A DNA stretch of 53,586 bases from a virus (Duplodnaviria; Caudoviricetes): positions 1 to 53,586 of the IMG/VR virus record IMGVR_UViG_3300007735_000754; one strand, 5' to 3'. Positions 7,150-53,346 of this stretch are shown here, one piece after another. The position numbers and the translations under genes are program-made. The notes under the pieces are model-generated. The model ran no database searches, had not been told where the DNA came from, and saw only the letters and a list, made by a program, of their open reading frames with translations. Numbering within the stretch: the stretch's first letter is position 1; each line of letters opens with the position of its first letter.

Positions 7150-8010
7150 ATGGCATACAGTACACCTTCAACCAATGATATAGTTTTATGCGCTACAGAA
7201 GAAGCAACAAATATAAGTCAATTAGATCTTATTTGGTTTACTGATTTCAATCAATATGCTGCGCCAAGTACTTCAATTCCAGCTGAAGGAGGAATGTATT
7301 TTGGTAACTCGGCAAACGGAGGTTCCATAACAGTTCCAACATCAACCGCAATTATGACCTCCTTTGGTGGACACACGGCTGCAAATGGAGCGATTCAGTT
7401 GGCAACAGGAACAACAAATAACGCAACAGGGTATGGTTCCATATACAGCCATCAAAATATATTACCTGGAATTCCAACTCCTTCAAATGGATTTGTCACA
7501 AAATATGAATATGAGTGTTTAATTCGAACCACGGGCACCATTCACAGTAATACTGTAAGAGGATCATACGTACTTGGTTTTATTAATGGTATTTCTAATG
7601 CGGCTCAGTCTGATGGTGTGTATTTTGAATTTTTATGTAATGGTATTACAACCGATACAACATGGAAAGTAGTATTTATGAATGCATTATCTGAAAGAAA
7701 TGATACTACTGTAACGGTTTCTGCAAATACAACATATCGAATGTACTTGAGCGTTGAAGTAAATAGCGCAGGAACATATACGACAACTTATAAAATAAAA
7801 AATATGACTACAGGTACAACTACAGAAGGTACCACTTCTCCAACCACAACTGCAAGATATCCTGCTGCGGCTACAGATTATATTGGCGCAGGGATAATAA
7901 ATAGTAAAACAACTACGGCAACAACAACATCTATATCTTTAAATGTAGATTATCTTGGGGTTCGAATCCGCAGACCATTAAGCAGAGAAATTTTAATAGG
8001 AAACATATAA
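7150..8010 (+). CDS. Tail-associated beta-rich protein, paralog 3 of 3
   Basis: Same motifs as 5398..6267. Confidence 0.6.
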   Translation: MAYSTPSTNDIVLCATEEATNISQLDLIWFTDFNQYAAPSTSIPAEGGMYFGNSANGGSITVPTSTAIMTSFGGHTAANGAIQLATGTTNNATGYGSIYSHQNILPGIPTPSNGFVTKYEYECLIRTTGTIHSNTVRGSYVLGFINGISNAAQSDGVYFEFLCNGITTDTTWKVVFMNALSERNDTTVTVSANTTYRMYLSVEVNSAGTYTTTYKIKNMTTGTTTEGTTSPTTTARYPAAATDYIGAGIINSKTTTATTTSISLNVDYLGVRIRRPLSREILIGNI

Positions 8011-8011
8011 T

Positions 8012-8227
8012 ATGGCAAATCCACGACCATTATCAGTAGTAAAAATTTCAAATTCTAATAGCGCAGGTGCAAAAAATTGGGCATTAACTGAAACTGATAG
8101 ATTCATATATTGGGGTGAGATTGCACAAGATCCGACCCGTTGTTATGTTGAAGGATTAAACAATGGTGTAAAAATTGCATGGATGTATCCAGAAGATTTT
8201 GTAGAAGTTGATCCTTTAGATTTTTAA
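8012..8227 (+). CDS. Small hypothetical protein ending the fibre operon (possible chaperone)
   Basis: Starts 1 nt after the previous stop. Function inferred from position only. Confidence 0.5.
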   Translation: MANPRPLSVVKISNSNSAGAKNWALTETDRFIYWGEIAQDPTRCYVEGLNNGVKIAWMYPEDFVEVDPLDF

Positions 8228-8255
8228 TTGACTTGCCTATAATTTGTGATATAAT
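8228..8255 (+). promoter_or_regulatory. Sigma70-type early promoter (TTGACT-N16-TATAAT, extended TG)
   Basis: -10 ends 6 nt before the dUTPase ATG. Confidence 0.75.
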
Positions 8256-8261
8256 ATTCTC

Positions 8262-8783
8262 ATGATTCTTGAATATTTTAAAGATAATCCGTACATCCCA
8301 GATCCAAATTTTCAGACCAAGATGGCAGCGTGTTTTGATCTTGCCGCCTACATTCCAAAGAATGAAAAGGTCAAAGTTTACTCTGGCAAGGAATGCATGG
8401 ATGTCTCCCCAATCTATGACTCCGAGAAAGAAGACTCTTATGTCTGCCTGATGCCCGGAGAAAGGGCTCTAATTCGTACAGGATTGACTTTTAAGCTGCC
8501 CGATGGATATTCCCTCCGTCTACACCCCCGGTCAGGGATGGCCCTTAAATACGGTCTTACGCTGACAAATTGCGAAGGCGTAGTTGACGAAGATTATACC
8601 TACGAGACCAAACTTATCATGATGAATACCAATAGCAAGGAGTCCATCAAAATTTATAATAAAGATCGTGTGGCACAGGCAGAACTAGTTGCATATGAGC
8701 AACCTTTGCTGGCTGAGATTCAAACTCGTCCGACTCTAAAGTCAGACAGGGTTGGTGGGTTTGGTAGTACTGGAGTCAGATGA
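8262..8783 (+). CDS. dut: dUTPase (trimeric)
   Basis: Motifs A.FDL, PRSG, GVVDEDY, RVAQ and R.GGFGSTG. Confidence 0.95.
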   Translation: MILEYFKDNPYIPDPNFQTKMAACFDLAAYIPKNEKVKVYSGKECMDVSPIYDSEKEDSYVCLMPGERALIRTGLTFKLPDGYSLRLHPRSGMALKYGLTLTNCEGVVDEDYTYETKLIMMNTNSKESIKIYNKDRVAQAELVAYEQPLLAEIQTRPTLKSDRVGGFGSTGVR

Positions 8784-10078: not shown

Positions 10079-10107
10079 TTGACATATCCCTTGAAATATG
10101 TTATAAT
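10079..10107 (+). promoter_or_regulatory. Consensus sigma70 promoter TTGACA-N17-TATAAT
   Basis: Perfect -35/-10 with extended TG. ATG 6 nt downstream. Confidence 0.85.
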
Positions 10108-17888: not shown

Positions 17889-19775
17889 ATGAATAACCTA
17901 CCAGCATTTCAAGAATTTATTTTTATCTCTCGCTACTCCCGTTGGATGAACAGCCAGAACCGCCGCGAAACATGGGAGGAGTGCGTTCAGCGATGGTGGG
18001 ATTATTTCACCTCAAAGGTTCCGCAACTCTTGGAACGACCCGATGTCAAGGATGCAATTCTCAATCTTGATGTTCTTCCATCCATGAGAAGTCTGATGAC
18101 TGCAGGTCCTGCAGTCGATCACGACAATACCTGCATCTACAATTGCTCGTATCTTCCAATCGATTCAATTGAATCGTTTGCTGAATTGTTTGTTGTGTTG
18201 ATGAATGGCACCGGAGTTGGATACTCTGTAGAAAGACAGTACACGGACAAGCTTCCGGGTGTTGCTTCAAAGATTGAAAAGAATTTTGAAAACGTTATTG
18301 TAGTAGAAGATTCGAAGGAAGGTTGGGGAAATGCAATCAAATCACTCTTGGCTAATCTCTACGAAGGCAGACATCCTAAATGGGATCTATCTAAGATCAG
18401 ACCTTCTGGTGCTCGTCTCAAAACTTTTGGTGGTCGTGCTAGTGGTCCTGCGCCTCTGGACAACCTATTTAAGTTTATTGTCAAGCTTTTCTATAACGCA
18501 CAGGGCAGACGTCTTACTGCACTTGAATGTCATGACGTATGCTGTGCCATTGCCAATGCAGTTATCGTAGGCGGCGTTCGTCGTTCTGCCATGATCTCAT
18601 TGAGCGATCTTGCTGACCGCGAAATGGCTCTCTGCAAGAGCGGTGCTTGGTGGGAACAGGCTGGCTTCCGGTCATACGCAAACAACTCTGCTGTGTATCG
18701 TGGCCGTCCTCCCATGGGTCAGTTCCTTGAAGAGTGGACATCTCTGTACAACAGTCACAGCGGCGAACGTGGTATGATCAATCGTTCTGCTCTTCAGGCT
18801 CATGCTGCAAAGAATGGAAGAGATGAAGATTGCGAATACGGCACCAATCCATGTTCCGAGATCATTCTGAAGCCATTTGAATTCTGCAATCTATCCACTG
18901 TAGTTGTTCGCCCAACGGATACTGCAGCATCTTTGAAGAAGAAGATTGAGATTGCCACAATCATTGGTACTGTTCAATCTACCTTTACTCACTTCCCATA
19001 TCTTCGTCCCGAGTGGAAGAAGAACTGTGAAGAGGAACGTCTACTTGGCGTTTCTATGACTGGCATTTTCGACAACAAGCTGACCAGCGGTTTGGAAGGC
19101 AAGCCAAAGCTTGTTCGTCTTCTTGAGACGCTTCGCGATCATGCGAGTGCGACCAATCTCAAGTGGGCAGAGAAGTTGGGAATCACTCCCAGCAAGTCGA
19201 TTACATGTGTGAAGCCTGAAGGCACTACATCGTGTTTGGTGGACTCAGCCTCCGGTCTCCATCCTCGCTATGCGGACTACTACTACCGCAGAATTCGCCT
19301 TGACAAGAAGGATCCCCTTTATCAGTTGATGAAGGATCAAGGTGTACCATGTGAGGATGATGTAATCAACCCAACTTCTACTGCAGTATTCACCTTTGCA
19401 ATGAAGGCTCCCAAGGGAACTCTCACGACAGAGGAACTCCGTGCACTAGATCACCTTGATCTATGGAAGACATACCAAGAGCATTACTGCCATCACAAGC
19501 CATCTATCACCGTCAACTATAGGGACAACGAGTTCCTTGAAGTTGGTAACTGGTTGTGGGAAAACTTTGATTGTGCTACTGGTATTTCATTCCTTCCGGG
19601 TGGAGATTCGCACACTTATGCTCAAGCACCATTTGAGAGAATTGATGCAACTGTGTACAACAGCCATCCAAAGATTGAAGTAGACTTCAACAAACTTTCC
19701 AACTATGAACAAGAAGACAACACAGAGTCCGCAAAAGAATACGCTTGTCAAGGCGGAGCCTGTCAAATCATGTAA
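17889..19775 (+). CDS. nrdJ: Class II (B12-dependent, monomeric type) ribonucleotide reductase
   Basis: PSMR, NCSY, GTGVG, GGVRRSA, TNPCSEI, CNL, KPEGT and C-terminal C.GGAC. No beta-subunit gene adjacent. Confidence 0.92.
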   Translation: MNNLPAFQEFIFISRYSRWMNSQNRRETWEECVQRWWDYFTSKVPQLLERPDVKDAILNLDVLPSMRSLMTAGPAVDHDNTCIYNCSYLPIDSIESFAELFVVLMNGTGVGYSVERQYTDKLPGVASKIEKNFENVIVVEDSKEGWGNAIKSLLANLYEGRHPKWDLSKIRPSGARLKTFGGRASGPAPLDNLFKFIVKLFYNAQGRRLTALECHDVCCAIANAVIVGGVRRSAMISLSDLADREMALCKSGAWWEQAGFRSYANNSAVYRGRPPMGQFLEEWTSLYNSHSGERGMINRSALQAHAAKNGRDEDCEYGTNPCSEIILKPFEFCNLSTVVVRPTDTAASLKKKIEIATIIGTVQSTFTHFPYLRPEWKKNCEEERLLGVSMTGIFDNKLTSGLEGKPKLVRLLETLRDHASATNLKWAEKLGITPSKSITCVKPEGTTSCLVDSASGLHPRYADYYYRRIRLDKKDPLYQLMKDQGVPCEDDVINPTSTAVFTFAMKAPKGTLTTEELRALDHLDLWKTYQEHYCHHKPSITVNYRDNEFLEVGNWLWENFDCATGISFLPGGDSHTYAQAPFERIDATVYNSHPKIEVDFNKLSNYEQEDNTESAKEYACQGGACQIM

Positions 19776-20088
19776 GCGAAATGTTGTCAGTATTTTACTG
19801 AAACACGCCAAGCACAGGGCAAAGAAAAGGAACTTAGAATTTAATCTTACCAAAGATGACATTGTAATACCTGAAGTTTGCCCTGTGCTGGGGATAGAGA
19901 TTCGGCCATTTGACTTTCATCACTCTCCTTCTATAGATCGAATAGACAATACAAGGGGATACACGAAAGACAACATAATAGTTGTATCATTCAAGGCCAA
20001 TCAATATAAAGGCGCAGCCAACATAGAAGACTTACGTAAGGTTGTAGAATTTTACGAAAATCTTAATCATAAAACATCCTCTAAATAA
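19705..20088 (+). CDS. HNH-like (His-Me finger) endonuclease
   Basis: AKKRNLEFNLT, CPVLG and SPSIDRID...GY.KDNI.VVS.KAN. Start uncertain; overlaps nrdJ. Confidence 0.75.
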   Translation: MNKKTTQSPQKNTLVKAEPVKSCKRNVVSILLKHAKHRAKKRNLEFNLTKDDIVIPEVCPVLGIEIRPFDFHHSPSIDRIDNTRGYTKDNIIVVSFKANQYKGAANIEDLRKVVEFYENLNHKTSSK

Positions 20089-21327: not shown

Positions 21328-21822
21328 TTAGGGTTTTCTCATAAACATTTTTATAACTTCCTCAAACATCATATTGTGGGTAGGTTCTTTTGGCTTTCTT
21401 AGAAGTTCCATTCCTGCCTCTTTGGGGGTTTTGTTTCCCTTAAAAAGATTGCAGTCACGGCAACATGCAACTAAGTTAACCCAAGAGTTCCCCCCACCTT
21501 TGTGTCTGGGAACGATGTGATCTACAGTAGCATCCTTGTCGGTAAGCTCCAAGGAGCAATATTGGCATGTATATTTATCGCGTCTGAGGATGTTCTTTTT
21601 GCTAGGAAAACATTTTTTGTTGGGGATTTTCACATAATACTTGAGGATAAGTACTTTTGGAATTTTGATTTCCCCGACAAGCGCCTTGACTTTAATGCAC
21701 TTTTGCCCTTCAATTTCATAATAAACCTTATTTTTTGTCATAAGGTCAAGAGCACGTCGCATGGTAATTATATTAAGAGGGCTTTGGTCAAAATTCAATA
21801 ACAGTACTGAATTTTCAACCAT
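21328..21822 (-). CDS. HNH endonuclease (McrA-like)
   Basis: VLLLN...PL, NILRRDKYTCQYC and TVDHIVPR.KGG..SW.NLV.CC..CN..K. Start placed at MVENSVLLLN. Confidence 0.88.
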   Translation of the reverse strand: MVENSVLLLNFDQSPLNIITMRRALDLMTKNKVYYEIEGQKCIKVKALVGEIKIPKVLILKYYVKIPNKKCFPSKKNILRRDKYTCQYCSLELTDKDATVDHIVPRHKGGGNSWVNLVACCRDCNLFKGNKTPKEAGMELLRKPKEPTHNMMFEEVIKMFMRKP

Positions 21823-22003
21823 TGTTTTGGAGGAAGGTCGCGAAGGAGGCAATTCTGCTCTCGTTCTGTTGTTGACTTTCTTCTTTAGACGCTTCGATTG
21901 CTTGAAGCTGGTGTATGGCTTTTGCTTTGGACTCATGCTTACCTAAAATCTTTTCACCTGAAGAGTCTGTCACGATCCAGTTATTTCCAGATTGTTTAAT
22001 CAT
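21815..22003 (-). CDS. Small phage protein (LG.H.S...A..QL.AIE.SK type)
   Basis: Late promoter CTAAATA at 22017-22011, 7 nt upstream. Confidence 0.7.
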   Translation of the reverse strand: MIKQSGNNWIVTDSSGEKILGKHESKAKAIHQLQAIEASKEESQQQNESRIASFATFLQNNG

Positions 22004-22222: not shown

Positions 22223-25200
22223 ATGAAAAATTTTAATGATCTCATAAACGAATCAACTAGTAAAAAAGTTACATCAGATTATAACAGCTTTTTGCTAGAA
22301 AAGCAATATTTTATAACCAAAAAGACGGTTATGATTTTGACGGAGCAAGAGGAAGATAGCGGAGATCCAGAAGATGACGAAAATGCGGGAACGCATTTCC
22401 GTCCACACTTGGGTGGAAAGTATTTCGTACACGTTGACATTGACGGAAAAAGAGACATTAAAGTAGTAAACACCCCACAAGAAGCGGCCTTGATTGCACA
22501 AAAATATCCCGGTACTGTTGCCTATAATTTTAAAGGGGATGTATTAGATTTAAATTCAAATGAAGGTTACATAGCAGAAGAAGAAGATACCAGAAGTAGA
22601 AGGGGTATGCCAGAAGTAGAGTCTGATGATTCTTGGGCCAACCCATGGCATCTTCTTGGTGCAGTTGACTCTGTCGCAAAAGCATGGAGAGGCAAGGAGA
22701 AGGGAGCAGCTATCCGAGTAACTGCTCCTGAGTTTGCCGGACCAAGAGGTGACATAGAGACATTCAATAATCTTGCAAGACGTATTGGAGTTTTTGGATC
22801 TGACAACACTCCACAAAAAACTGTATCATCAAGAGACAAAGAAGTCCAAGCAAGAAATGAAAAAATTGCAAAGTATGAACAAGAGATGTGGGGAAAGGGC
22901 TGGAAAAAAGCAGAGGATGTTGCAGTAGGAGAACCAGAGAAGGGTCCATCTCTTCCAGGACAAAAGTCCACACACCAACAAAATGTGGAACTTAAAAAGT
23001 TTAAAGAATATAATGCAACAGTTACCAAGTACCAAGGAAAGGCGCTACAAGATTATTATGATGCCAATCCAGATAAGTTTGAAGAACATGAAGGATTCAT
23101 GGACTCAAACACTGCAACTCGGCTGATGCCAATTGGTGTAAGTGAAAAAAGAGGTTCTGCCATGCCCAAAGATCTTGCTGATACAGTCAGTGGATCTTTG
23201 GCAAATCTTGGAGCACAGATTCCAGAGCTTTCAATGGTTGGAGCTGCAGCTGCTGCTGCACCAGCGGTAGCAGCAGGAGCAGTAGGGGCTATTCCCGGAG
23301 CAGCAGGAGTTGTTGCACCAGAAGCCGCCGCAGCCGCTACTTCCGGCGCAATCACAGGTGCTTTTGGTCTGCAAGGAGCAAAGGGACTTTCCGATGTAGC
23401 AATTGGAACGGAAAAGGGAGATGTCGTTAAAGCTGCTATGGACGCAGCTATGGCCGCTGCAGCGGGAGGCCCAGCACTCAAGGGATACGAAGCCCGCGTT
23501 AACGCACCTAAGGCATCAATGGAAGCCGGTGTTGCAAAGGCAGCTGGAGTAAAGTCTTCAGCAGATTCAGTACGAGCAATGCGAGATCAAGCAATTGCAG
23601 ATGCAAAAGCTGGCGCAGAAGCAGGAAGACTTGAAACTGGTCAAGCAAAAGAAACAAGAAGAACTTCAAACCAAAGAAAAACAGCAGCAGCCGAAGCAGA
23701 ACTGGAACAACTTCCATTTGGCTTACGTCATTTTGTAAAGGCACTAAGAGATGCCACAACACCAAAGCCAGATATTGGAAAAGTTGGGCCAGAAACACAA
23801 AGAGTCCAACGTAGCGAAATAGCAAGAGACGTCTCAAAGGATTTGGAAGCCAAATACAAGGAACAAGCACAGGATGCGCTGGATGTTGTATACGGAGATA
23901 AACATCTTCCTACGCCAGACACATCATCCTCAACTGTTGCTCCACCTTCCGCTTTTGAACAAGGTAGACTTGCGGTTCGACAGGGTGTTGAGGATGTAAG
24001 ATTTGACTTCAAGAAAGCATGGGAAAAGACTCATGGCGGAATAAAATTTGATGATGTATTCAAATCTCAAACTTTAAGAGCAATAGAAGCCCAAAGAGCA
24101 AAAGAAGAAAAAGAAGCAGCAGAAAAAGCAACCAAAAGTGTAGAAGCTGCAAATACAGCGGCTGCAGCAAGAGCACCAATCCAAAATGCAATGATTGGAC
24201 AGCTTATTCGCGGAGAGCTCTTGGCAAAGAAAGTTGGATCGGCTGTACGAGATGTCGCAGAGCCACTTATAACTCAACCGCTGAAAACAGCAACTCTCGC
24301 TACTGCTCTATCTACTGCAAGCCCAGTAAATCTTATTACACCAGAAACAGTCGGAAGACTTCCATTTGGCCAGTTGGTACAAATGATAGAGCCAGCCACA
24401 GCGGCACCCAAAACATCAAAGACTGGAATAGATACGCGATTCTTTGAAACGGAAAAACCGGCGACACCAAAAGCCGAAGCGCCTAAAGTCGAAGCACCTA
24501 AAGTTGCTTCTACCGTTAAAGCTCCGGCAACTTCTGCTCCCGCAATTTCAATTGGCGGAATGAATCAACCCATGGATCTGTCACAAATTCCAGATGAAGA
24601 AGAGTCAAAGTCTCTTGCTGTATCATCTGGGGGAATGAATCAACCTATGGATCTGTCACAAATTCCGGATGAAGAAAAACCAGATTCTCCGGTATCAATT
24701 CCATCTAGCAGACCCCAAGCTTCACCACAGCCGTCTGTAACACCAAGCACCAAAGCACCATCATCTTCACAGCAATCTGTTTTAAATGCAATTAAATCTG
24801 CTAGACAAAACATAAAATCTGTTTCTCCTAAACCATCTGATACTCCAGACGCAATACTAGACCGCTCTATGGATTCAGTTGAAGCCGCTAGAGCTGCTGC
24901 TTCTTGGAGAGCCCCCGAAAAAGAAACAGTATCTTTTGGTACTTCTGGTAAACCAACTGGCGCTGAAGCTCCAGCTATGGCACAACCTAAAATCGAACCA
25001 CAAAAGCCATCAAAGGAAGATGTTAAAAAGTTTGCCGATTTGTTTAAGTATCAAATAGGAGGAGACATTCCGCTAGACCGTTCTATGGATTCGGTTGAAG
25101 CCACTAGAGCTAAAGCCGCGTGGAGGGCTCCAGAAAAAGCAACAGTATCTTTTGGAGGCGTTGGTCCTGCGGAGACATCAAAAGTACAGCCACCAAAGGA

Positions 25201-26029
25201 AGAAACTGTTAAACCATCCAAAGAACAAATTAAAAAGTTTGCGGATCTATTTAAATATGAGGTTGGAGGTGCTGGAACCCCACCAGACCGTTCAATGGAT
25301 TCCGTAGAAGCCTCCAGATCTGCTGCTAAGTGGGCACCAGACATAGATCGCTCAATGGATTCTGTTGAAGCCGCTAGAGCTAATGCTGCATGGAGAGCTC
25401 CAGAAAAATCAACAGTATCTTTTGGTACTTCTGGTAAACCTGGTGGCGGCGAAGTTCCTTCTATGGAAGCTCCGAAGACAGAAACACAAAGACCATCCAA
25501 AGAAGACGTTAAAAAGTTTGCAGATCTATTTAAATATGAGTTCGGAGGAACAAGCCTCCCACCAGACCGTTCAATGGATTCGGTCGAAGCATCCAGAGCC
25601 AATATTAAGTGGACAACTGCGGCGCAAGCTCCGGTTGTTGTAAAGGATGTAGAAACCATAACAAATAAAGCTGAAGTAAAGAAGACTATAGAAGATACAA
25701 AAAAGGCCGAGGAACGCCAAAAAGAAGAAACTCGTAAAAACATCGATGATGCTCAAAAAGTAATTGATCAGGAAAAGGTTATAGATAAACAGATACAGAA
25801 AGCCGAAGAAGGAAGAGGCGGGGGAGAAGGAAAAACAGAACCACCAGTTGATATAACAAAACCAAGTATTGCCGCAGCAGCGGGAGGTTTGGGTGGTTGG
25901 CCATTTGGATCAGACTTTGGATATGAGGGCATTCCATTCAAGAAAGAAGCGATGCAATCCGGCATACAAAACTGGGATCTTTTGATGAAGCATATCTATG
26001 GAAAGTATGCTGGAACTGTGTCTAAATAA
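22223..26029 (+). CDS. Large low-complexity repeat protein, putative internal head protein
   Basis: N-terminal MKNFNDLINE (CTS-like), Ala/Pro/Lys-rich body and internal peptide repeats. Confidence 0.65.
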   Translation: MKNFNDLINESTSKKVTSDYNSFLLEKQYFITKKTVMILTEQEEDSGDPEDDENAGTHFRPHLGGKYFVHVDIDGKRDIKVVNTPQEAALIAQKYPGTVAYNFKGDVLDLNSNEGYIAEEEDTRSRRGMPEVESDDSWANPWHLLGAVDSVAKAWRGKEKGAAIRVTAPEFAGPRGDIETFNNLARRIGVFGSDNTPQKTVSSRDKEVQARNEKIAKYEQEMWGKGWKKAEDVAVGEPEKGPSLPGQKSTHQQNVELKKFKEYNATVTKYQGKALQDYYDANPDKFEEHEGFMDSNTATRLMPIGVSEKRGSAMPKDLADTVSGSLANLGAQIPELSMVGAAAAAAPAVAAGAVGAIPGAAGVVAPEAAAAATSGAITGAFGLQGAKGLSDVAIGTEKGDVVKAAMDAAMAAAAGGPALKGYEARVNAPKASMEAGVAKAAGVKSSADSVRAMRDQAIADAKAGAEAGRLETGQAKETRRTSNQRKTAAAEAELEQLPFGLRHFVKALRDATTPKPDIGKVGPETQRVQRSEIARDVSKDLEAKYKEQAQDALDVVYGDKHLPTPDTSSSTVAPPSAFEQGRLAVRQGVEDVRFDFKKAWEKTHGGIKFDDVFKSQTLRAIEAQRAKEEKEAAEKATKSVEAANTAAAARAPIQNAMIGQLIRGELLAKKVGSAVRDVAEPLITQPLKTATLATALSTASPVNLITPETVGRLPFGQLVQMIEPATAAPKTSKTGIDTRFFETEKPATPKAEAPKVEAPKVASTVKAPATSAPAISIGGMNQPMDLSQIPDEEESKSLAVSSGGMNQPMDLSQIPDEEKPDSPVSIPSSRPQASPQPSVTPSTKAPSSSQQSVLNAIKSARQNIKSVSPKPSDTPDAILDRSMDSVEAARAAASWRAPEKETVSFGTSGKPTGAEAPAMAQPKIEPQKPSKEDVKKFADLFKYQIGGDIPLDRSMDSVEATRAKAAWRAPEKATVSFGGVGPAETSKVQPPKEETVKPSKEQIKKFADLFKYEVGGAGTPPDRSMDSVEASRSAAKWAPDIDRSMDSVEAARANAAWRAPEKSTVSFGTSGKPGGGEVPSMEAPKTETQRPSKEDVKKFADLFKYEFGGTSLPPDRSMDSVEASRANIKWTTAAQAPVVVKDVETITNKAEVKKTIEDTKKAEERQKEETRKNIDDAQKVIDQEKVIDKQIQKAEEGRGGGEGKTEPPVDITKPSIAAAAGGLGGWPFGSDFGYEGIPFKKEAMQSGIQNWDLLMKHIYGKYAGTVSK
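24860..25612 (+). repeat. Five DRSMDSVEA.R....W repeats interleaved with three KKFADLFKY repeats
   Basis: Copies start at 24860, 25076, 25286, 25346 and 25565. Confidence 0.9.
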
Positions 26030-26068: not shown

Positions 26069-26743
26069 GTGTTACCAGCAAAACTTTTTAATCACGATAA
26101 ACTTTCTTTAGATTCTCTTCTTCAAGAGGAAACATCAACAACGGGACGTTCCTATAAGACTCCTGATGGTGTTTTTCCTTCTGTTACCACTGTTGTTGGT
26201 TTTGAAAAACAACAGTTTTTTGCAGAATGGAGAAAGAAAAATCCAACAGAAAGCGTTAGAGTAACTACACGGGGAACAGAGTTTCATGCTCTTATAGAAA
26301 GATATCTCAATAACGAAGAGATAAACTTTGACACGATCATGCCTAACATGGTAGACATCTTTGTTCAGATGCAACCAATGTTGCATAGAATAGACAATAT
26401 TAAGATGCTTGAGGCTCCTCTGTGGTCTTCCTTAATAGGTCTTGCAGGCAGAACAGATTGCATTGCAGACTTTGATGGGAAGTTGTCGATTATTGACTTC
26501 AAGGCCAGTACCAAGCAGAAGAGAAAAAAGGATATTGAAAATTACTTCTTGCAGGCTACGGCTTATGCCATGATGCTTCAAGAACGCACTGGAGTAAAGG
26601 TAGAGCAATTCGTAATATTAATTGCGTGCGAAGACGGAACTAGTCAAATTTTTACCGATAAGCCCATTAATTACGTGAAGAAATTAAAAGAAATTATAGA
26701 AAGATACAGGGAACATATCAATGCACAGAGAGAGAATAGTTGA
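26069..26743 (+). CDS. PD-(D/E)XK (Cas4-like) exonuclease of T4-like phages
   Basis: PSVTTV, RGTEFH, E..LWS, AGRTDC, IIDFK and QATAYA. Sigma70 promoter at 26031-26059. Confidence 0.88.
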   Translation: MLPAKLFNHDKLSLDSLLQEETSTTGRSYKTPDGVFPSVTTVVGFEKQQFFAEWRKKNPTESVRVTTRGTEFHALIERYLNNEEINFDTIMPNMVDIFVQMQPMLHRIDNIKMLEAPLWSSLIGLAGRTDCIADFDGKLSIIDFKASTKQKRKKDIENYFLQATAYAMMLQERTGVKVEQFVILIACEDGTSQIFTDKPINYVKKLKEIIERYREHINAQRENS

Positions 26744-27353
26744 CATTGGCGAGCGCGTAAACAAGCGAAACACTAAACTTTGGTTTATGATGAACGAAAA
26801 TTCTCGTTCAGCTCTGCACCGAGAGCAGTTTGTACAGAACAATGGTGGTCTGTTCTACAAAAATGATCGGGGCGAGTGGATGTGGAAGAATGATTACATC
26901 GTCAAGAACGGCTATTGGCTCATGCGCCAAGAGACAGGAGAAAAGGTATTCTTTGAGAACATGAGCGAGTTCTGTCGCAAGAATGATCTTTCTATTGTAA
27001 AAATTTGCGAGATCATGAATGGGAAAAGAAAGAGTTACAAGGGATGGATCCCAATAGAAGTTCGCCCAGTCAAGGATGGAGTTGGATCGCACAAGAATAT
27101 TGGAGAAAACCCTGATCTAAAACCCAAGTACGAGATTGTAACACAGACAGCAATCTTCAAGAATTGGGCAACAAACGAGATCGTTCTGGTCACCAATATA
27201 CCAGAATTTGCCGAAAGAATCAAGGGCCAGCAAAAGGAACTCTATCTGGTTGCTCAGGGCAAGAAAAAGTTCTACAAAGACTGGACTTTGGCTACCTCTT
27301 CGACTCCTCCATCCAATTTGGCCAAAAAGAAGGCTCCCAAGAAGGAAAGCTAA
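26721..27353 (+). CDS. Protein with two NUMOD1-like DNA-binding repeats
   Basis: F.N..EF..........GKRKSYKGW and ..N..EF..........GKKKFYKDW repeats. Confidence 0.5.
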   Translation: MHRERIVDIGERVNKRNTKLWFMMNENSRSALHREQFVQNNGGLFYKNDRGEWMWKNDYIVKNGYWLMRQETGEKVFFENMSEFCRKNDLSIVKICEIMNGKRKSYKGWIPIEVRPVKDGVGSHKNIGENPDLKPKYEIVTQTAIFKNWATNEIVLVTNIPEFAERIKGQQKELYLVAQGKKKFYKDWTLATSSTPPSNLAKKKAPKKES

Positions 27354-33876: not shown

Positions 33877-34170
33877 AAACCCCACTGCTTTAAGCAGCCA
33901 TTGCTAATTCGTTAGCAATTATTTTTTGCAACTGTTTATTTACGACACTTGTTACCCGTGTCGGGTATCTCCTTCTTCATTACTCTATGCAGGTCGAAAC
34001 CAAATTTAGGCCCTTAATGCCCAAAGCCTAGGACTTTGGGCGATGCCCCGCTGCTACGAGGACTTGGTTCGCCATTCTCAAAGAATCGCAGAATCTTTGA
34101 GTAAGGCTAATGGACCTATCGGAAATCGAATCCGAGTGTCTGACACATTTCTTGTCGATATCAACAATAC
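33842..34170 (-). ncRNA. ssrA: Circularly permuted (two-piece) tmRNA
   Basis: Acceptor piece first (T-arm TCGGA-TTCGATT-TCCGA, then TAGGTCC-A ending at 34111), then a 97-nt spacer, then the coding piece starting GGGCCTA AATTTGGTTTCGAC at 34013. 7-bp acceptor stem with G3.U70, PK1, and tag ANELAMAA* at 33916-33890. Confidence 0.92.
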
Positions 34171-34176
34171 CACTAT

Positions 34177-34218
34177 TATTTATATTTTTTTATATGGAGA
34201 CCATGGGAATTATAAATA
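34177..34218. promoter_or_regulatory. Divergent late promoters: TATAAATA (-, 34184-34177) for the tmRNA and TATAAATA (+, 34211-34218) for the HNH gene
   Basis: Two exact consensus octamers. Confidence 0.75.
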
Positions 34219-34223
34219 ATTGT

Positions 34224-34769
34224 ATGAACACTGTATCATGTAAATGTGAAGTATGCAATAAATCATTTGAAAAATTTATTGGTGAATATAATAGAAAAAT
34301 TAAAAAGAAAACACCATTTTATTGTAGTCTAGAATGCTCAGGAAAAATATCAATAGATAAAAATAATAAAATTAAAAAATGGAATAAAAGTCAAAAAAAT
34401 ATAAACCAATTAAAATCCATGTGCGGAAATAGACGAGATGATTATTCATCTTTTAAGTACTTATATCGTACTATAAAAATGAGAGCAAAAGAAGGAAAAG
34501 AATTTAATCTAACATTGGAAGATTTAAAAACTATTTGGGAACAACAAAAAGGGTGTTGTGCTATTTTAAATCATAAACTTACTTTACCAATTTGGAATGT
34601 AAAAAATAATAACTCAAATTATTTAGCTAGTATTGATCGTATTGATAGCCAAAAAGGTTATATAAAAGACAATATTAGATTTGTATGTTTGACAATAAAT
34701 TATGCAAAAAATAAATTCAATGATAATGTTCTAAATGAATTTATCAACATGTGTAAAAATAAAACATAA
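34224..34769 (+). CDS. Free-standing HNH-like homing endonuclease with N-terminal Zn finger
   Basis: C..C....YCS..C, EFNLT and SIDRIDS.KGY.KDNI.FV...IN. Very AT-rich and opposite in strand to the flanking RNA genes. Confidence 0.8.
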   Translation: MNTVSCKCEVCNKSFEKFIGEYNRKIKKKTPFYCSLECSGKISIDKNNKIKKWNKSQKNINQLKSMCGNRRDDYSSFKYLYRTIKMRAKEGKEFNLTLEDLKTIWEQQKGCCAILNHKLTLPIWNVKNNNSNYLASIDRIDSQKGYIKDNIRFVCLTINYAKNKFNDNVLNEFINMCKNKT

Positions 34770-43929: not shown

Positions 43930-44175
43930 ATGTTAAAATTTTCCCAATTCATCAAAGAAGCAAAAGTACAAGGTGCAATTACTCAGATGGGGCTTGCGGT
44001 TACCCCAGACGAAGAGCAAGAGTATCGCAATATAATTGCCGCCAATCAGGATAACCCAAATACGGAAGAAGTAGAGCAGACTGGGGATGATCCGGCTTGG
44101 CAGAACACTAATGCAGCGGTATCAAATTACGTCAGCAAACAAGTTCAGTCAATGCGTCAACAAGCAGGACTTTGA
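43930..44175 (+). CDS. Putative internal head protein (CTS MLKFSQFIKE)
   Basis: CTS-like decapeptide and CTAAATA upstream. Confidence 0.65.
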   Translation: MLKFSQFIKEAKVQGAITQMGLAVTPDEEQEYRNIIAANQDNPNTEEVEQTGDDPAWQNTNAAVSNYVSKQVQSMRQQAGL

Positions 44176-45686: not shown

Positions 45687-45992
45687 ATGCTTAGCTTCAA
45701 AGAATTTTTAATCGAATCTTCCGCCGCATGGCAACGCAAAGAAGGCAAAGACCCCAAGGGTGGTCTGAACAAGAAAGGCGTTGAGTCTTACCGCAGAGAA
45801 CATCCCGGTTCTAAACTTTCCACTGCTGTAACAACCAAGCCATCTAAATTGAAGAAGGGCTCTAAGTCTGCAAAAAGAAGAAAATCCTTCTGCAGCCGCA
45901 TGAAGGGAATGAAGGCTAAACTTACTTCTGCCAAGACCGCAAGAGATCCTGATTCAAGAATCAATAAGTCCTTGCGTAAATGGAACTGTTAA
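45687..45992 (+). CDS. Basic protein (AAWQRKEGK..GGLN..RRKSFC.RM..W.C module) with CTS
   Basis: MLSFKEFLIE followed by a module common in T4-like phages. GATAAATA upstream. Confidence 0.75.
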   Translation: MLSFKEFLIESSAAWQRKEGKDPKGGLNKKGVESYRREHPGSKLSTAVTTKPSKLKKGSKSAKRRKSFCSRMKGMKAKLTSAKTARDPDSRINKSLRKWNC

Positions 45993-49474: not shown

Positions 49475-49666
49475 ATGAAAACTTTCATTCATTTTATCAA
49501 CGAAGAACACGACAAGGTATGGAAGGCCAAGGTAAAGGTCACAAAGGACGGAAAGACCACAGAAGTCGCTGTGGAGTCATCTGAGAACATCCGCAAGGCC
49601 GTACACGCAAAGGTAGCCCAACTGAGCAAGGATGGCTACAAACTTGATGGTGTAGATTACGATTGA
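49475..49666 (+). CDS. Putative internal head protein (CTS MKTFIHFINE)
   Basis: CTS-like start, AATAAATA and GAGGA upstream. Confidence 0.7.
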   Translation: MKTFIHFINEEHDKVWKAKVKVTKDGKTTEVAVESSENIRKAVHAKVAQLSKDGYKLDGVDYD

Positions 49667-49688: not shown

Positions 49689-50045
49689 ATGCAAAATTTC
49701 AGAGAACTAAAAGGTCTAATCGAAGCAGCAGAAGCAGTAATGGGATATGCCCTACCCGGCGAACCTCCAATTGGCCCACCGCCCCCACCAGACACAGGCC
49801 CAAAGCAACCTCCTATTGAAATTCCTCCGATTAAGAATCCAAAGTTTAAGTCTTCATCGAGATCCAATCAAAAATCTTATCCATCGGGAGATTTGGCTTC
49901 TTCCAAACAAAAGAATGAGCCCGAAGTAGATCTTCCTGATTGGGTAGAATACTTCAGACCCGGCAAAAACACAGGTCCACGGGATGGCTACAACCCATAC
50001 CCAAAGATCGACCTTCCGGGAATATTCGGTCACGGAATTAAGTAA
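49689..50045 (+). CDS. Pro-rich putative internal head protein (MQNFRELKGLIE)
   Basis: CTS-like start and GATAAATA upstream. Confidence 0.6.
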   Translation: MQNFRELKGLIEAAEAVMGYALPGEPPIGPPPPPDTGPKQPPIEIPPIKNPKFKSSSRSNQKSYPSGDLASSKQKNEPEVDLPDWVEYFRPGKNTGPRDGYNPYPKIDLPGIFGHGIK

Positions 50046-50048
50046 AAA

Positions 50049-50375
50049 TTAATTCGCTGGGCCAATTCGTTTCCAATCGACAAGGTTTTCGCCAAATTCC
50101 ATTTTCATTCTCTTCTTGAATGTTTTTGCCTCCATCTTGGTGGCAGTTATGGTCATTTCGACAAAATTTCCATAGTCAGAATATTGCACAGAAGAATACC
50201 AATGGGTACTCACAATAGGACTGACTTCAGCCATTGGTCCTTGAATTGTGCATTTGTACTGAAACATCTTGCTGTCATTGAAAAGAGTAAGACAAGGATT
50301 GATGCCATTCTTTGTGGCATGGGTATATGGAAGTTTACTATTGAAAAAAAGTGTATAGTTGTTAATATTTGACAT
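50049..50375 (-). CDS. Hypothetical protein
   Basis: Fills the gap between + strand genes. ATG start. Confidence 0.5.
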   Translation of the reverse strand: MSNINNYTLFFNSKLPYTHATKNGINPCLTLFNDSKMFQYKCTIQGPMAEVSPIVSTHWYSSVQYSDYGNFVEMTITATKMEAKTFKKRMKMEFGENLVDWKRIGPAN

Positions 50376-50398
50376 TTTGTGTTAGAATAAATATTATT

Positions 50399-50731
50399 AT
50401 GAAAAGTTTCAAAGATTATCTGTTAGAGGGAATTAAGAAAGCCATCAGAAGCAAGAACCCCGAGGCATACCGCAAGGAATTGCTGCGACAGGGTGTAAGA
50501 GGGGCAGACCCAAGAACAGATGCGCCATACAACGGGAAAGATCGTGGGTCGCTTGGCGACAACATGATTAAATTGGCGATTGAGGCAGAAAACGAAGGAA
50601 TGGGGCTGGGGCTGTACAATAAGGGAGATTATAAGGCAACACTAGATGCTTTGTCAAGTGTAGCAGGAAAAGCACAGACTCAGAAGTTAAACGCATTGGC
50701 CCGTAACAAGAGAAACGCAAAGAAGAAATAA
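50399..50731 (+). CDS. Putative internal head protein (CTS MKSFKDYLLE)
   Basis: ATG 5 nt after AATAAATA. Confidence 0.7.
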   Translation: MKSFKDYLLEGIKKAIRSKNPEAYRKELLRQGVRGADPRTDAPYNGKDRGSLGDNMIKLAIEAENEGMGLGLYNKGDYKATLDALSSVAGKAQTQKLNALARNKRNAKKK

Positions 50732-50732
50732 T

Positions 50733-51452
50733 ATGAAAAGATTCAAGGAATATCTATTTGAAAATGTTTTAGATATGCCAGCAGTTCGTAAACTGTTGCA
50801 TGGCACCAAAGTTCTTGGACCCGATGGGACTCCTGCCAGAGTATTTCATGGAACTAGCGCAGCAAAAGAATTTAAAAAATTTGCATTAACTAAAGATTTT
50901 GGATATCACTTTGCAGAAGATCCAAAATTAGCTGCAGCAGCACTCCGAAGTAGAGTAGGCGGTCGGACACAAGCGGGGGGTGGAAGGACCATTCCCACTT
51001 ACTTGGCGATCAAAAACCCGGCTCCGTTTGATGAAATCACCAAAGAAGACATTACCGATTCTCCGGGAGGTTGGAAATTTGCCGATGTGGTCAAAAAGAT
51101 GGCAGACAGAGGAATCTTTTCCATCACACCCAACCCACATGAATTTGATGAACCAACAGAACCCGGACAAATCGTAGGTCCCCCAAAGAAGAGAAAAATT
51201 GGAAGAATTGACAAAGATCAAAGAGAATATGTGGGACAAGTTGCTGATGAAATAAGACAAGCAACTAAAGGAAAAAAATTATCTGTAATGAAAAGAAATC
51301 AACTCATGTTGAAAAGATTGGTAGGTGACTTAAGGGGATTGGGTTATGACGGTGGTGTTTATGATAATAAATTTGAAGGCAAAGGTAAGACATGGGTAGC
51401 ATTTGATCCCAAACAGATAATCAATTCCATAACCGGAAGGCAGATGGGATAA
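50733..51452 (+). CDS. ADP-ribosyltransferase-fold protein of the polyvalent-protein (ART-PolyVal) type, with CTS
   Basis: VFHGT, GYHFAEDP..A, YL.IKNP, GYDG..Y.N and WVAFDP.QI. N-terminal MKRFKEYLFE. Confidence 0.7.
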   Translation: MKRFKEYLFENVLDMPAVRKLLHGTKVLGPDGTPARVFHGTSAAKEFKKFALTKDFGYHFAEDPKLAAAALRSRVGGRTQAGGGRTIPTYLAIKNPAPFDEITKEDITDSPGGWKFADVVKKMADRGIFSITPNPHEFDEPTEPGQIVGPPKKRKIGRIDKDQREYVGQVADEIRQATKGKKLSVMKRNQLMLKRLVGDLRGLGYDGGVYDNKFEGKGKTWVAFDPKQIINSITGRQMG

Positions 51453-51457
51453 GAACC

Positions 51458-52201
51458 ATGAAAAGATTCAAGGAATTTCTCAGCGAAGCAAGAAGATCCC
51501 TTGAGGGAACGCATGCCCTGAACAAAGTATACGACGAACGCCCATTCTTTGGAGAAGTTTCCGCCAAGATGCCCAAACTTTCAGAAACGGAGAGAAGACT
51601 TCTTGATGCGTACACACAGAAGGCATTACCCCTCAACAGAGAACTGAGACAGGCAGCAGTATGGGAGACATCAAGAAACAGAGGAAATATTCCATCCCCG
51701 GAGCAAGTTCTAGCAAGAATGAGAGACAGCAAAGAACTTACAAGGGACTTGGATGATCTTATCCAGCAGAAGGGAATGGTGCTTGCAAGACCATTCACCA
51801 CATACCGCGGAGTAACCAACCCGGAAAATCCCGAATTCTCCGATAATCTCATACGCGGAATTCAACATGGATTCCTTTCAACGGGAGTCTCACCGAGGGC
51901 ATCTGCATCGCTTCCAACCAGCGAAGTTCTTTCAATACACGACTGGGAGCGCAGAAGGCCAAAATTGTTAAAAATAAATGTACCCACAGGAACTAGGTTC
52001 TTGCCCAATCCCCAGACACGAAGTTCAAGGTTCAGAGGAGAGAATGAAATTATATTTCCAAGGGGAATGCATCTTGATACCGAAATGTCACCAGAGTCTC
52101 TATTGAAGTTCTATGGAGTAGGTGGAAAATCAGGAATGGAGAATTTTCACTATTCCATGCCCGTACATAGATCAAGAATATCCCATAGAGGCCACTCATG
52201 A
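51458..52201 (+). CDS. R-S-E clade (VIP2/Alt-like) ADP-ribosyltransferase with CTS
   Basis: YT....LN..LR, TYRGV, GFLSTG, L.I.VP.G and ENEIIFPRG. N-terminal MKRFKEFLSE. Confidence 0.8.
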   Translation: MKRFKEFLSEARRSLEGTHALNKVYDERPFFGEVSAKMPKLSETERRLLDAYTQKALPLNRELRQAAVWETSRNRGNIPSPEQVLARMRDSKELTRDLDDLIQQKGMVLARPFTTYRGVTNPENPEFSDNLIRGIQHGFLSTGVSPRASASLPTSEVLSIHDWERRRPKLLKINVPTGTRFLPNPQTRSSRFRGENEIIFPRGMHLDTEMSPESLLKFYGVGGKSGMENFHYSMPVHRSRISHRGHS

Positions 52202-52800
52202 AAAGTTTCAAACAATTTCTTTTAGAGGGACAGGCGGAAGTCGATGCGGCGATCAAAGCAACTGAGGACGCGCACAACAGAGAGCGTAAAATTTGGTATG
52301 CCCGGGGAAGATTAGAAACCATGATCGCAGATGCTACCGACAAAAATAATGTGTCTGACAGTGAATATTCTAGATTGAATCGAAAGGCACACCAAAAGGT
52401 ACAGCAAAGAGTCAATCCCATGTTAAAGAAAACTTTTACAAATTTATCCCCTGAAGATAGAATGCAATTTCTTCTATCCCCACGTTCATCAAATTCCGAG
52501 TGGGCAGAATTTCATGACAAATACTCTCCCGGTGGTGCAGCAGGACAAACCATGTATGATAAAATAAAACAGGATCGTCAAGTTGAAATGTTCCCATTAA
52601 AAGATTTAAGGGATGCGGAGGACATGCTTTCAGTTATTCGAAGTAAAAAAATAGATCGCAGTTTCCATCCGAAAGATCGCAACTTAACAAAGTCACCCAT
52701 AACGCAAGATAGAGGGGATAATAGAATCAAGGGAGGAACTTTCCATGAGAGAAAGAAAATGAGAACAGAACGGAATAAGAGAAAGTCCTCAAAGAAATAA
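52198..52800 (+). CDS. Putative internal head protein (CTS MKSFKQFLLE)
   Basis: ATGA-coupled to the ART gene. Confidence 0.7.
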   Translation: MKSFKQFLLEGQAEVDAAIKATEDAHNRERKIWYARGRLETMIADATDKNNVSDSEYSRLNRKAHQKVQQRVNPMLKKTFTNLSPEDRMQFLLSPRSSNSEWAEFHDKYSPGGAAGQTMYDKIKQDRQVEMFPLKDLRDAEDMLSVIRSKKIDRSFHPKDRNLTKSPITQDRGDNRIKGGTFHERKKMRTERNKRKSSKK

Positions 52801-52825
52801 AGAAATATTCACTTGTCAAAGAAAG

Positions 52826-52858
52826 AAACCCTTCTAGGAACAAACTAGAGGGGTTTTT
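52826..52858 (+). terminator. Intrinsic terminator
   Basis: AAACCCTTCTAG-loop-CTAGAGGGGTTT stem running into a T tract. Confidence 0.75.
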
Positions 52859-53346
52859 AATTAGGTAGAGGCAGAGGTTGCCCAATAGTTGGGGCTAAGG
52901 ATAGAGGGGGGTACGGGGGAGGGGTAAAGGGGGAGAAGAAAGATGGGAGAGGGGGTAAAGAAATTTTAGAGAAATTTTGAGGGATTGGGGTTACAAAACT
53001 TTCTCAAACACTCTTTTATACGCCTCATTAGCGCACACAGAGGTATCTCAGAGCCCTCCGAACGCAAAAAAGGTCTCCCAGCACCTTTTAGACCCTCCGA
53101 GGCCCTATAAACGATTTGTACTATACAATCCCAATACAAAATTTAACAAAATTTGTGAATCCTGTCCACTGACCCCCTCAATGACCCCCTCTAAGAGCCC
53201 CTATAAGAGTGACTATGAACAATGTCAATACAATTCTGTCCATATTGTTCTGAATCCTGTCCATAAGCGTCCCTCTAGCCAATCTATCGAAGACTCTGTT
53301 GTACTTACTGTTCACACGGATGAAAGATTGTCTGAGGTGCATACTT

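Follow-up and report, generated by a model that had tools for sequence, protein, structure and literature searches.

Two predicted ADP-ribosyltransferases of different classes in one leader-tagged operon of an uncultured T4-like phage

In an uncultured virus (IMG/VR record IMGVR_UViG_3300007735_000754), we analysed a four-gene operon on the plus strand, at positions 50399-52800, that encodes two candidate ADP-ribosyltransferases (ARTs) of different classes. The window of this study is the entire record, a linear fragment of 53.6 kb (53,586 nucleotides, nt) with a CheckV completeness of 32%. The first open reading frame (ORF), ORF1 (50399-50731; 110 amino acids, aa), is followed after 1 nt by ORF2 (50733-51452; 239 aa) and, after a further gap of 5 nt, by ORF3 (51458-52201; 247 aa), which overlaps ORF4 (52198-52800; 200 aa) by the 4 nt ATGA. 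ORF2 has an ART-PolyVal domain and ORF3 an ADPrib_exo_Tox domain of the Alt/VIP2/C3 class; ORF1 and ORF4 belong to no family. Each gene opens with a leader (50399-50428 in ORF1, 50733-50762 in ORF2, 51458-51487 in ORF3, and likewise at the start of ORF4), and the arrangement is as in the original prediction, which described four tightly coupled genes that each carry a capsid targeting sequence (CTS). The two proteins of no family were also said to be basic. Indeed, ORF1 and ORF4 have isoelectric points (pI) of 9.95 and 9.99, and the property is wider than was claimed, since both ARTs are basic too (pI 9.8-10.1 and net charge +10 to +15 for all four). The mature parts of the four proteins are mutually unrelated. 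Downstream lies an intrinsic-terminator-like hairpin of 14 base pairs that ends in a U-run (52824-52858, plus strand; free energy -21.1 kcal/mol, z -3.97), in agreement with the single terminator proposed earlier; one of 200 shuffled sequences folded as well, and a consensus terminator scanner missed the hairpin.

The N-termini of all four proteins follow the pattern MK[SR]FK[DEQ][YF]L.E. A strict regular expression for this leader gave six matches in the six frames of the window, each at the first Met of a plus-strand ORF, compared with a mean of 0.17 and a maximum of 2 in 200 shuffles. With a looser expression (ORFs of at least 40 aa) there were eight, all at the starts of plus-strand ORFs, comprising the operon four and four others. 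In T4, the genes of which we read directly, IPIII and IPII start with MKTYQEFIAE and IPI with MKTFKEF. The first 10 residues of T4 IPIII suffice for packaging, residues 4 and 7 act mainly in targeting and residues 8 and 10 in processing, and the prohead protease gp21 cuts after L/I-X-E (PMC9026906). The leaders of ORF1-ORF4 have F at position 4, Y or F at 7, L at 8 and E at 10, and differ from T4 elsewhere. Therefore, the functional CTS positions are all kept, which, with the excess over shuffled sequence, bears out the CTS assignment. T-even internal proteins are a highly diverse set in which the conserved CTS is the only shared part (PMC3012670). A signal-peptide or secretion reading of the leader was ruled out by eye, as there is no hydrophobic stretch.

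The leader was then sought across IMG/VR with an exact, degenerate 23-nt pattern for its first eight codons, which occurred in at least 122 stretches. Matches numbered at least 125; among those listed, E stands at residue 10 in 114 of 125, and an in-frame stop lies within 15 codons upstream in 101 of 125, which marks these as ORF starts. They represent at least 98 distinct leader-tagged proteins (at least 50 aa), from which 49 were chosen by eye across visibly different groups and compared with Pfam. Twelve of the 49 had a match (E ≤1e-3). The families were adenylate kinase (2), DUF6321 (2), DUF6267, PHP, a HAD-type phosphatase, S-adenosylmethionine (SAM) lyase, NUDIX and DUF5872, with sub-threshold matches to Zn_protease and HIPIP; an ART domain was found in none of these 12. 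In the leader-tagged adenylate kinases the Pfam domain begins at residue 16-19, and the leader is thus an extra piece in front of a complete enzyme. Its presence on unrelated proteins fits a modular address tag, short of proof of packaging.

ORF2 matched the Pfam family ART-PolyVal (PF18760) over residues 31-234 (E 9.5e-11; 43.1 bits, cut-off 31.2), and the domain occurs once in the window (six-frame search, 40.9 bits). All three ORF2 homologues tested also matched the family. The HGT (H39-T41), G.HF (57-60) and GYDG (204-207) motifs, from which the original prediction had recognised an ART-PolyVal domain, are present within a wider set of VxHGT, GxHF, PxYLxIxNP, GYDG and AFxPxQI. The ARTs of polyvalent proteins belong to the Tox-ART-HYD2 clade, with an active site of H in strand 1, Y in strand 2 and D in strand 5 (PMC5512222), and H39 (50847-50849) and D206 (51348-51350) of ORF2 agree with this H and D. 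We aligned 41 whole proteins, chosen from matches under ~1200 aa. Residues H39, P96, G204 and D206 were invariant (41/41), Y90 was Y in 32 and F in 4, and E215 was E in 28 and D in 6. Position 59, which is H in ORF2, was H in 23, Y in 8, F in 8 and W in 2. The active-site aromatic residue could be either position 59 (strand 58-61) or Y90 (strand 85-91). The family assignment follows mainly from the profile match and the invariant H and D.

Close relatives of ORF2 (n = 3; 96%, 54% and 34% identity) all bear the leader, and P0046 is a fourth leader-bearing relative. More distant tblastn matches were to Tenacibaculum phage pT24 (24% identity) and Pseudomonas phage F116. Scanning IMG/VR with ORF2 gave three loci, with full length reached only in L002, a 42-kb record that is discussed below. 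The ART-PolyVal family is very large, spanning phages and conjugative elements; in a profile search of 1.84 billion representatives it comprised 4046 proteins at E ≤1e-3, and we examined 151 top relatives of ORF2 (the best 150 of the 4046, plus P0007). Their median length was 1810 aa; 111 were at least 1000 aa long, six were shorter than 300 aa, and many had several copies of the domain. The earlier statement that ART-PolyVal usually resides in large polyvalent proteins is thus supported. Among the six short relatives, four bear the MKSF leader. Among the protein-modifying domains of polyvalent proteins, ARTs occur most often, and there are sometimes as many as 12 copies (Iyer et al. 2017, PMC5512222). 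ORF2 is not embedded in a large multidomain protein but has a single domain behind its leader and, judged by sequence, is a member of the ART-PolyVal domain family and not a polyvalent protein. Five proteins of 370-760 aa (P0091, P0100, P0116, P0131 and P0122) contain two or three tandem ART-PolyVal domains, and some tandem proteins have leader-like N-termini (MKLVQFLNE, MRLLEFLSA, MRAKEFTTE). These look intermediate between the solo ORF2 form and the giant polyvalent proteins.

ORF3 matched the Pfam family ADPrib_exo_Tox (PF03496) over residues 40-207 (E 2.8e-7; 30.5 bits, cut-off 23.4), which again occurs once in the window (six-frame search, 26.3 bits). Five relatives were found (58-95% identity), and the three that were tested (P0001, P0004 and P0005) exceeded the same cut-off; T4 Alt matches this family with E 5.8e-36. 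The R-S-ExE motifs proposed earlier are in place: R117 (YRG; 51806-51808), S141-T142-G143 (S141-T142, 51878-51883) and E195-N-E197 (52040-52048) follow in order and were invariant in the six aligned sequences (6/6). In the Alt/VIP2/C3 class, enzymes with ExE rather than QxE use arginine, not asparagine, as acceptor. By its profile match and motifs, ORF3 belongs to the Alt/VIP2/C3 Pfam family and has the full catalytic motif set, but it is not an Alt orthologue. It had no tblastn match in cultured phages.

ARTs are often packaged in the virions of myoviruses (PMC9503650). Packaging in the head is established for T4 Alt and has been proposed broadly for myoviruses from MuF/portal fusions, late-gene neighbourhoods and polyvalent proteins (PMC5512222, PMC9503650). 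The original prediction proposed a co-injected NAD-using cassette, and this is our preferred account too: we consider it reasonably likely that the products of ORF1-ORF4 form a packaged, injected and enzymatically active set. The four genes would be one transcription unit for internal head proteins of a T4-like myovirus. The 10-residue N-terminal CTS would dock each protein onto the prohead scaffolding core, and a gp21-type prohead protease would remove the leader after L-x-E at residues 8-10. The basic mature proteins (~11, 25, 27 and 22 kDa) are predicted to remain among the packaged DNA and to enter the host with it. Once there, ORF3, with the R-S-ExE motifs of the Alt/VIP2/C3 class, would use host nicotinamide adenine dinucleotide (NAD+) to mono-ADP-ribosylate arginines of host proteins, comparable to T4 Alt acting on RNA polymerase. 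ORF2, as an H-Y-D-class ART, would modify a different target, either protein or nucleic acid, and two host targets could be struck in the first seconds of infection. ORF1 and ORF4 would most likely be non-enzymatic internal proteins, for example host-nuclease inhibitors like T4 Ip1-3.

Several results weigh against this interpretation, and they come from the enzymes, the promoter region and the wider locus. For ORF3, comparison with T4 Alt was not significant (BLASTP E 0.22; hhalign E 0.18), and neither were those with T4 ModA (E 3.2) and ModB (E 0.45); the only stretch common to ORF3 and Alt is the ExE-I-(I/L)-(F/L)-PRG segment. Of the earlier label 'Alt-like', the shared Pfam family and motifs therefore stand, and a significant pairwise match to Alt, ModA or ModB does not. 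In a profile search of the PDB, the best row for ORF3 was C3 exoenzyme at a non-significant E of 0.065 (C3 made up 7 of the 16 rows at E ≤1). An AlphaFold2 model of ORF3 from the 6-sequence alignment had a predicted local distance difference test (pLDDT) score of 35, and the fold was not obtained. ORF2 was modelled from the 41-sequence alignment with a pLDDT of 81.0 and a predicted template modelling score (pTM) of 0.78, placing H39 within strand 37-41 and D206 where strand 207-211 begins. Foldseek against the PDB gave this model a single match at E ≤0.001, chain B of the cyanophage A4 pre-ejectosome (9k3a, E 1.2e-4), with weaker rows for PARP15, tankyrase, PARP10 and MbcT. VIA-align scored 9k3a_B at Z 8.0 (root-mean-square deviation 3.9 Å over 129 residues), tankyrase/PARP at 6.3-7.0, ParT at 6.7, MbcT at 6.6 and diphtheria toxin at 6.5. 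The structural neighbours are almost all ART folds (deviations of ~4 Å over ~125 residues), and the Z scores are middling, all at or below 8; the program warns that Z below 8 can mean only a common arrangement. Searching the PDB by sequence with ORF2 profiles found nothing relevant. The ORF2 structure is consistent with an H-Y-E/D-type ART fold, short of proof. The original prediction named an ART fold in both proteins as its structural check; the neighbours of ORF2 (Z 6.3-8.0) are compatible with it, and the model of ORF3 does not bear on it at a pLDDT of 35.

The same structural data raise the question of whether the proteins could be packaged while one or both ARTs are inert, serving instead as DNA-associated structural or ejection proteins, as NAD+/ADP-ribose binders or as NAD+ hydrolases. 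The top structural neighbour of ORF2 is a pre-ejectosome chain described as DNA-binding (PMC12002296), the NAD+ phosphorylase MbcT is also among its neighbours, ORF2 contains ~70 inserted residues compared with the Pfam model and is modelled with low confidence at residues 131-160, and the aromatic position after G57 is His, not Tyr. However, His at position 59 is found in 23 of 41 family members and is hence the family norm. In addition, H39 and D206 are kept in 41/41, Y90 is Y or F in 36/41 and R-S-ExE is kept in 6/6. Conservation of these residues across 25-60% identity speaks for retained chemistry, and we regard inert ARTs as improbable.

The A4 chain B is an ejection protein seen inside the capsid (PMC12002296), and the ORF2 match falls within the region up to residue 1600 of A4 gp27. 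A sequence link between ORF2 and gp27 of A-4L (ORF27L of this Anabaena phage; L133 20116-25269, minus strand) was rejected, as gp27 had no Pfam match and hhalign to the ORF2 alignment gave E 0.18, a further point on the negative side; the structural match was kept, and a degenerate ART-like domain in A-4L gp27 is only a lead. The term 'ADP-ribosyl' has 0 occurrences in the main text of the A4 paper (PMC12002296).

The second group of adverse results concerns when the operon is expressed. An ATAAATA motif (50387-50393, plus strand), which we take to resemble the T4 late promoter TATAAATA, is separated from the first ATG by 5 nt. There are nine plus-strand copies of ATAAATA in the window, and an ATG follows within 5-16 nt in eight of these (3876, 30980, 34224, which is in frame inside a longer ORF, 41489, 45687, 49475, 49689 and 50399). 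The copy number is approximately that expected from base composition; it is the placement that stands out. The motif stands directly upstream of the operon and of four further genes that are leader-tagged or structural; outside the operon, three leader-tagged genes have a copy each. Overlapping the operon motif, however, is a sigma-70-like site (TTGACA-17-TATTAT; 50369-50397, plus strand) that matches the consensus, the sole basis of its detection, at 11 of 12 positions. The window contains 12 such sites of at least 11/12, compared with a mean of 1.74 and a maximum of 5 in 100 shuffles, and since they are in such excess they are probably real early promoters. Owing to the overlap, early expression of the operon, as for ModA/ModB, is possible. 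Moreover, with either promoter the RNA would begin no earlier than the first ATG, a start that does not account for the translation of ORF1. Of the 'one late promoter' in the original prediction, the late-type motif 5 nt before the ATG is upheld; late-only expression is not established.

An overlapping early promoter would suit proteins that are never packaged, i.e. early or middle takeover enzymes made in the cell like T4 ModA/ModB, for which the shared N-terminus would be a recombination-promoting 5′ cassette. At 247 aa, ORF3 is close in length to ModA and ModB (200 and 207 aa), and the leader codons are nearly identical in DNA (19 nt common to ORF2 and ORF3, 15 nt to ORF1 and ORF4), as recombination cassettes predict; in addition, the cassette content varies between related loci. 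Yet the leader retains exactly the T4 targeting and cleavage residues, and recombination homology alone does not require the E10 seen in 114 of the 125 listed IMG/VR copies. It has also been added before complete enzyme domains, such as the adenylate kinases with their domain from residue 16-19, all four proteins are strongly basic, and the late-type motif is present. We therefore think it unlikely that the proteins are unpackaged, and keep to packaging and injection as the preferred reading.

Other promoter features were seen in the window. The ATAAATA motif ends 5-7 nt before the ATG at five genes (motifs at 3862, 34212, 41477, 45673 and 50387, plus strand), and because this spacing has no room for a leader or Shine-Dalgarno sequence, it points to late mRNAs of this phage being leaderless or nearly so. 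On the minus strand within ORF1 (50657-50628), a site that matches the sigma-70 consensus perfectly (TTGACA-18-TATAAT, 12/12) faces a 108-aa minus-strand ORF (50375-50049); RNA started there would run antisense to the 5′ two-thirds of ORF1. Two further 12/12 sites, at 45670-45643 (minus) and 10079-10107 (plus), stand back to back with opposite-strand ATAAATA copies (45673, plus, and 10076, minus, respectively), and early and late signals seem to share intergenic spacers.

The remaining adverse results concern the wider locus. Matches to PHROGs identified T4-type replication genes in the window, namely a gp43-like DNA polymerase (E 1.8e-260), UvsX, a gp41-like helicase and a gp61-like primase, as well as thymidylate synthase, ribonucleotide reductase and tail-fibre genes. 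The polymerase is at most 41% identical to those of cultured phages, the top matches being Synechococcus myoviruses, and no close relative of the window was found among cultured phages by DNA search. Based on the replication genes and this divergence, we classify the phage as a distant, uncultured T4-like myovirus. On this 32%-complete fragment, no gene for a prohead protease, scaffold or capsid/head module was recognised, and the partner packaging machinery is thus unseen. Furthermore, the pairing of the two ARTs is not conserved in two related loci. The IMG/VR record L002 (22% complete) encodes a leader-bearing ORF2 homologue (54% identity), followed by a different leader-tagged ORF of 150 aa. 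In a metagenome scan with the ORF3 profile, the sole match was a 1.8-kb contig (L005) with a homologue of 66% identity; here, the ORF3 homologue is preceded by a homologue of the window ORF at 49475 and by a proline-rich ORF, with no ART-PolyVal gene between. Profiles of ORF3 and ORF4 found nothing in the three records with ORF2 relatives, which means little because these records are only 10-24% complete, and IMG/VR scans with ORF1, ORF3 and ORF4 (single proteins or profiles) found no relatives. Since the pair is not conserved in L002 and L005, the two ARTs would be independent cargo genes in a shuffling internal-protein locus, and the near-identical leader codons may supply the homology for this shuffling. 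Positions 1-3600 of L002 are apparently far more G+C-rich than the rest, as seen from ORF translations, with overlapping ORFs on both strands, and this contig may be chimeric.

Little can be said of the two proteins that flank the ARTs. ORF4 matched no family in Pfam, PHROGs or NCBIfam and had no solved relative in a PDB profile search; against NCBIfam/PADLOC it had only a sub-threshold YmfL match. Its eight homologues (34-96% identity) all bear the leader and share an invariant EGQ.E.D.AI directly past it and an invariant GGTFHERK near the C-terminus. ORF1 matched no family in Pfam, PHROGs, NCBIfam or PADLOC, and ORF2 and ORF3 had no match in NCBIfam and PADLOC either. In the ESM Atlas, the best feature scores were 0.82 for ORF4 and 0.87 for ORF1 (bar 0.9), and structure rows had template modelling scores of at most 0.37. 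T4 injects Ip1, Ip2 and Ip3, which inhibit type IV restriction enzymes (PMC12373910; PMC3012670), and by analogy an anti-nuclease role is a reasonable guess for ORF1 and ORF4. The analogy could extend to the whole operon: the proteins may be packaged and active, with ADP-ribosylation disabling immune proteins or nucleic-acid sensors rather than taking over transcription, and ORF1/ORF4 acting as further defence inhibitors. SAM lyase and NUDIX, two classes tied to counter-defence, are among the leader-tagged IMG/VR proteins, and the locus varies between relatives as arms-race genes would. Against this, there is no direct evidence of such a target and no PADLOC or other family match to a defence system. 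This anti-defence role is a sub-case of packaging, injection and activity in which the target alone differs, and we hold it as a possible but doubtful specialisation.

The four leader-tagged ORFs of the window outside the operon are all on the plus strand. That at 49475-49666 (63 aa) has its own ATAAATA and a weak match to phrog_2667 'internal head protein' (E 9.7e-4); that at 45687-45992 (101 aa; MLSFKEFLIE) is a DUF6321 protein with a pI of 10.7 and its own ATAAATA; and that at 43930-44175 (81 aa; MLKFSQFIKE) is acidic. The fourth, at 22223-26029, encodes 1268 aa (135 kDa, pI 6.0) behind a leader of the same kind (MKNFNDLINE) and matched nothing in Pfam, PHROGs or NCBIfam; as an internal protein, if it is packaged, it would be very large. 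A second N-terminal leader of ~29 residues (M.YLTNYYKNL.E.LQ...N.LENMLNE), which also ends in L-x-E, is found on at least five otherwise different ORFs of related contigs (L002 5165-7952, minus, and 7951-8529, plus; L005 677-1024). It may mark another class of prohead-core or packaged proteins, and the window ORF at 49689-50045 (start MQNFRELKGLIEA) may be a relative. Directly past the terminator, positions 52880-52975 (plus strand) are purine-rich with many G4-G6 runs (GGGGCTAAGGATAGAGGGGGGTACGGGGGAGGGG...), which is unusual in a window of 41% G+C. Among the replication genes are scattered HNH or endonuclease VII-type genes (19705-20088, 21328-21936, 26721-27353 and 34110-34769), which are probably homing endonucleases.

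Injected phage ARTs are a known theme, and the arrangement is what is new: a stand-alone ART-PolyVal protein behind a T4-type leader, adjoining a leader-tagged ART of the Alt class. We found no description of a T4-type CTS on an ART-PolyVal domain in the open full-text literature (subscription journals and supplements lying outside this scope). A full-text search on the family name alone likewise found no biochemical target of ART-PolyVal, the papers found listing the family merely as a sequence set. That ART-PolyVal is delivered into the host has been predicted from domain context, and ORF2, which carries a packaging leader of the experimentally defined T4 type, gives this prediction independent support at the sequence level. 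Judging from the tandem of ORF2 and ORF3, some phages may inject two NAD-dependent modifiers together. In addition, the leader census is a cheap way of listing candidate injected proteins in uncultured T4-like phages, with kinase, SAM lyase, NUDIX and phosphatase cargo. More tentatively, MKSFKEYLxE might be a general address label in a large uncultured marine T4-like clade, loading a changing set of enzymes into the head for injection, here including two mechanistically distinct ARTs that would act on different host targets upon entry; we offer this as a conjecture. If true, the solo leader-tagged ART-PolyVal protein would be the minimal free-living form of a domain that is chained into giant polyvalent proteins elsewhere, and ORF2, which at 239 aa makes a small construct for assays, would be a tractable protein from which to learn what a common, biochemically uncharacterised ART family modifies.

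The closest known proteins fall into four groups. Like T4 IPI, IPII and IPIII, its products have a 10-residue leader with an aromatic residue at positions 4 and 7, L or I at 8 and E at 10, and are small, basic and mutually unrelated proteins, several per genome, from a variable locus. In contrast, the leader-bearing T4 proteins are non-enzymatic inhibitors (PMC12373910), whereas the cargo here includes two enzymes by family and motif; the leader is MKTYQEFIAE in T4 and MKSFKEYLxE here, and the phages are distantly related. ORF3 shares with T4 Alt the PF03496 family, the R-S-ExE motif set with nearly the same Arg-to-Ser spacing (24 residues, compared with 25 in Alt) and, as predicted, delivery from the head. 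However, Alt has 682 aa, a large N-terminal region and the N-terminus MELITELFDE, whereas ORF3 has 247 aa and an internal-protein-type leader. Among the C3/VIP2 toxins, the ORF3 STG aligned on the STS of C3 exoenzyme and its ExE on the C3 QxE, together with an N-terminal helical YT..A..N..LR, in an alignment that was not significant (E 0.065) and with the difference of ExE against QxE. Lastly, ORF2 is like the polyvalent-protein ARTs (ART-PolyVal; the Tox-ART-HYD2 clade; 'N4-ART' of Iyer et al.) in its Pfam score over the cut-off, its motifs and its invariant H39 and D206, and virion delivery is predicted there (PMC5512222) as it is for ORF2 here. Those ARTs are found in giant multidomain proteins or MuF fusions, often in multiple copies, whereas ORF2 stands alone behind a T4-type leader.

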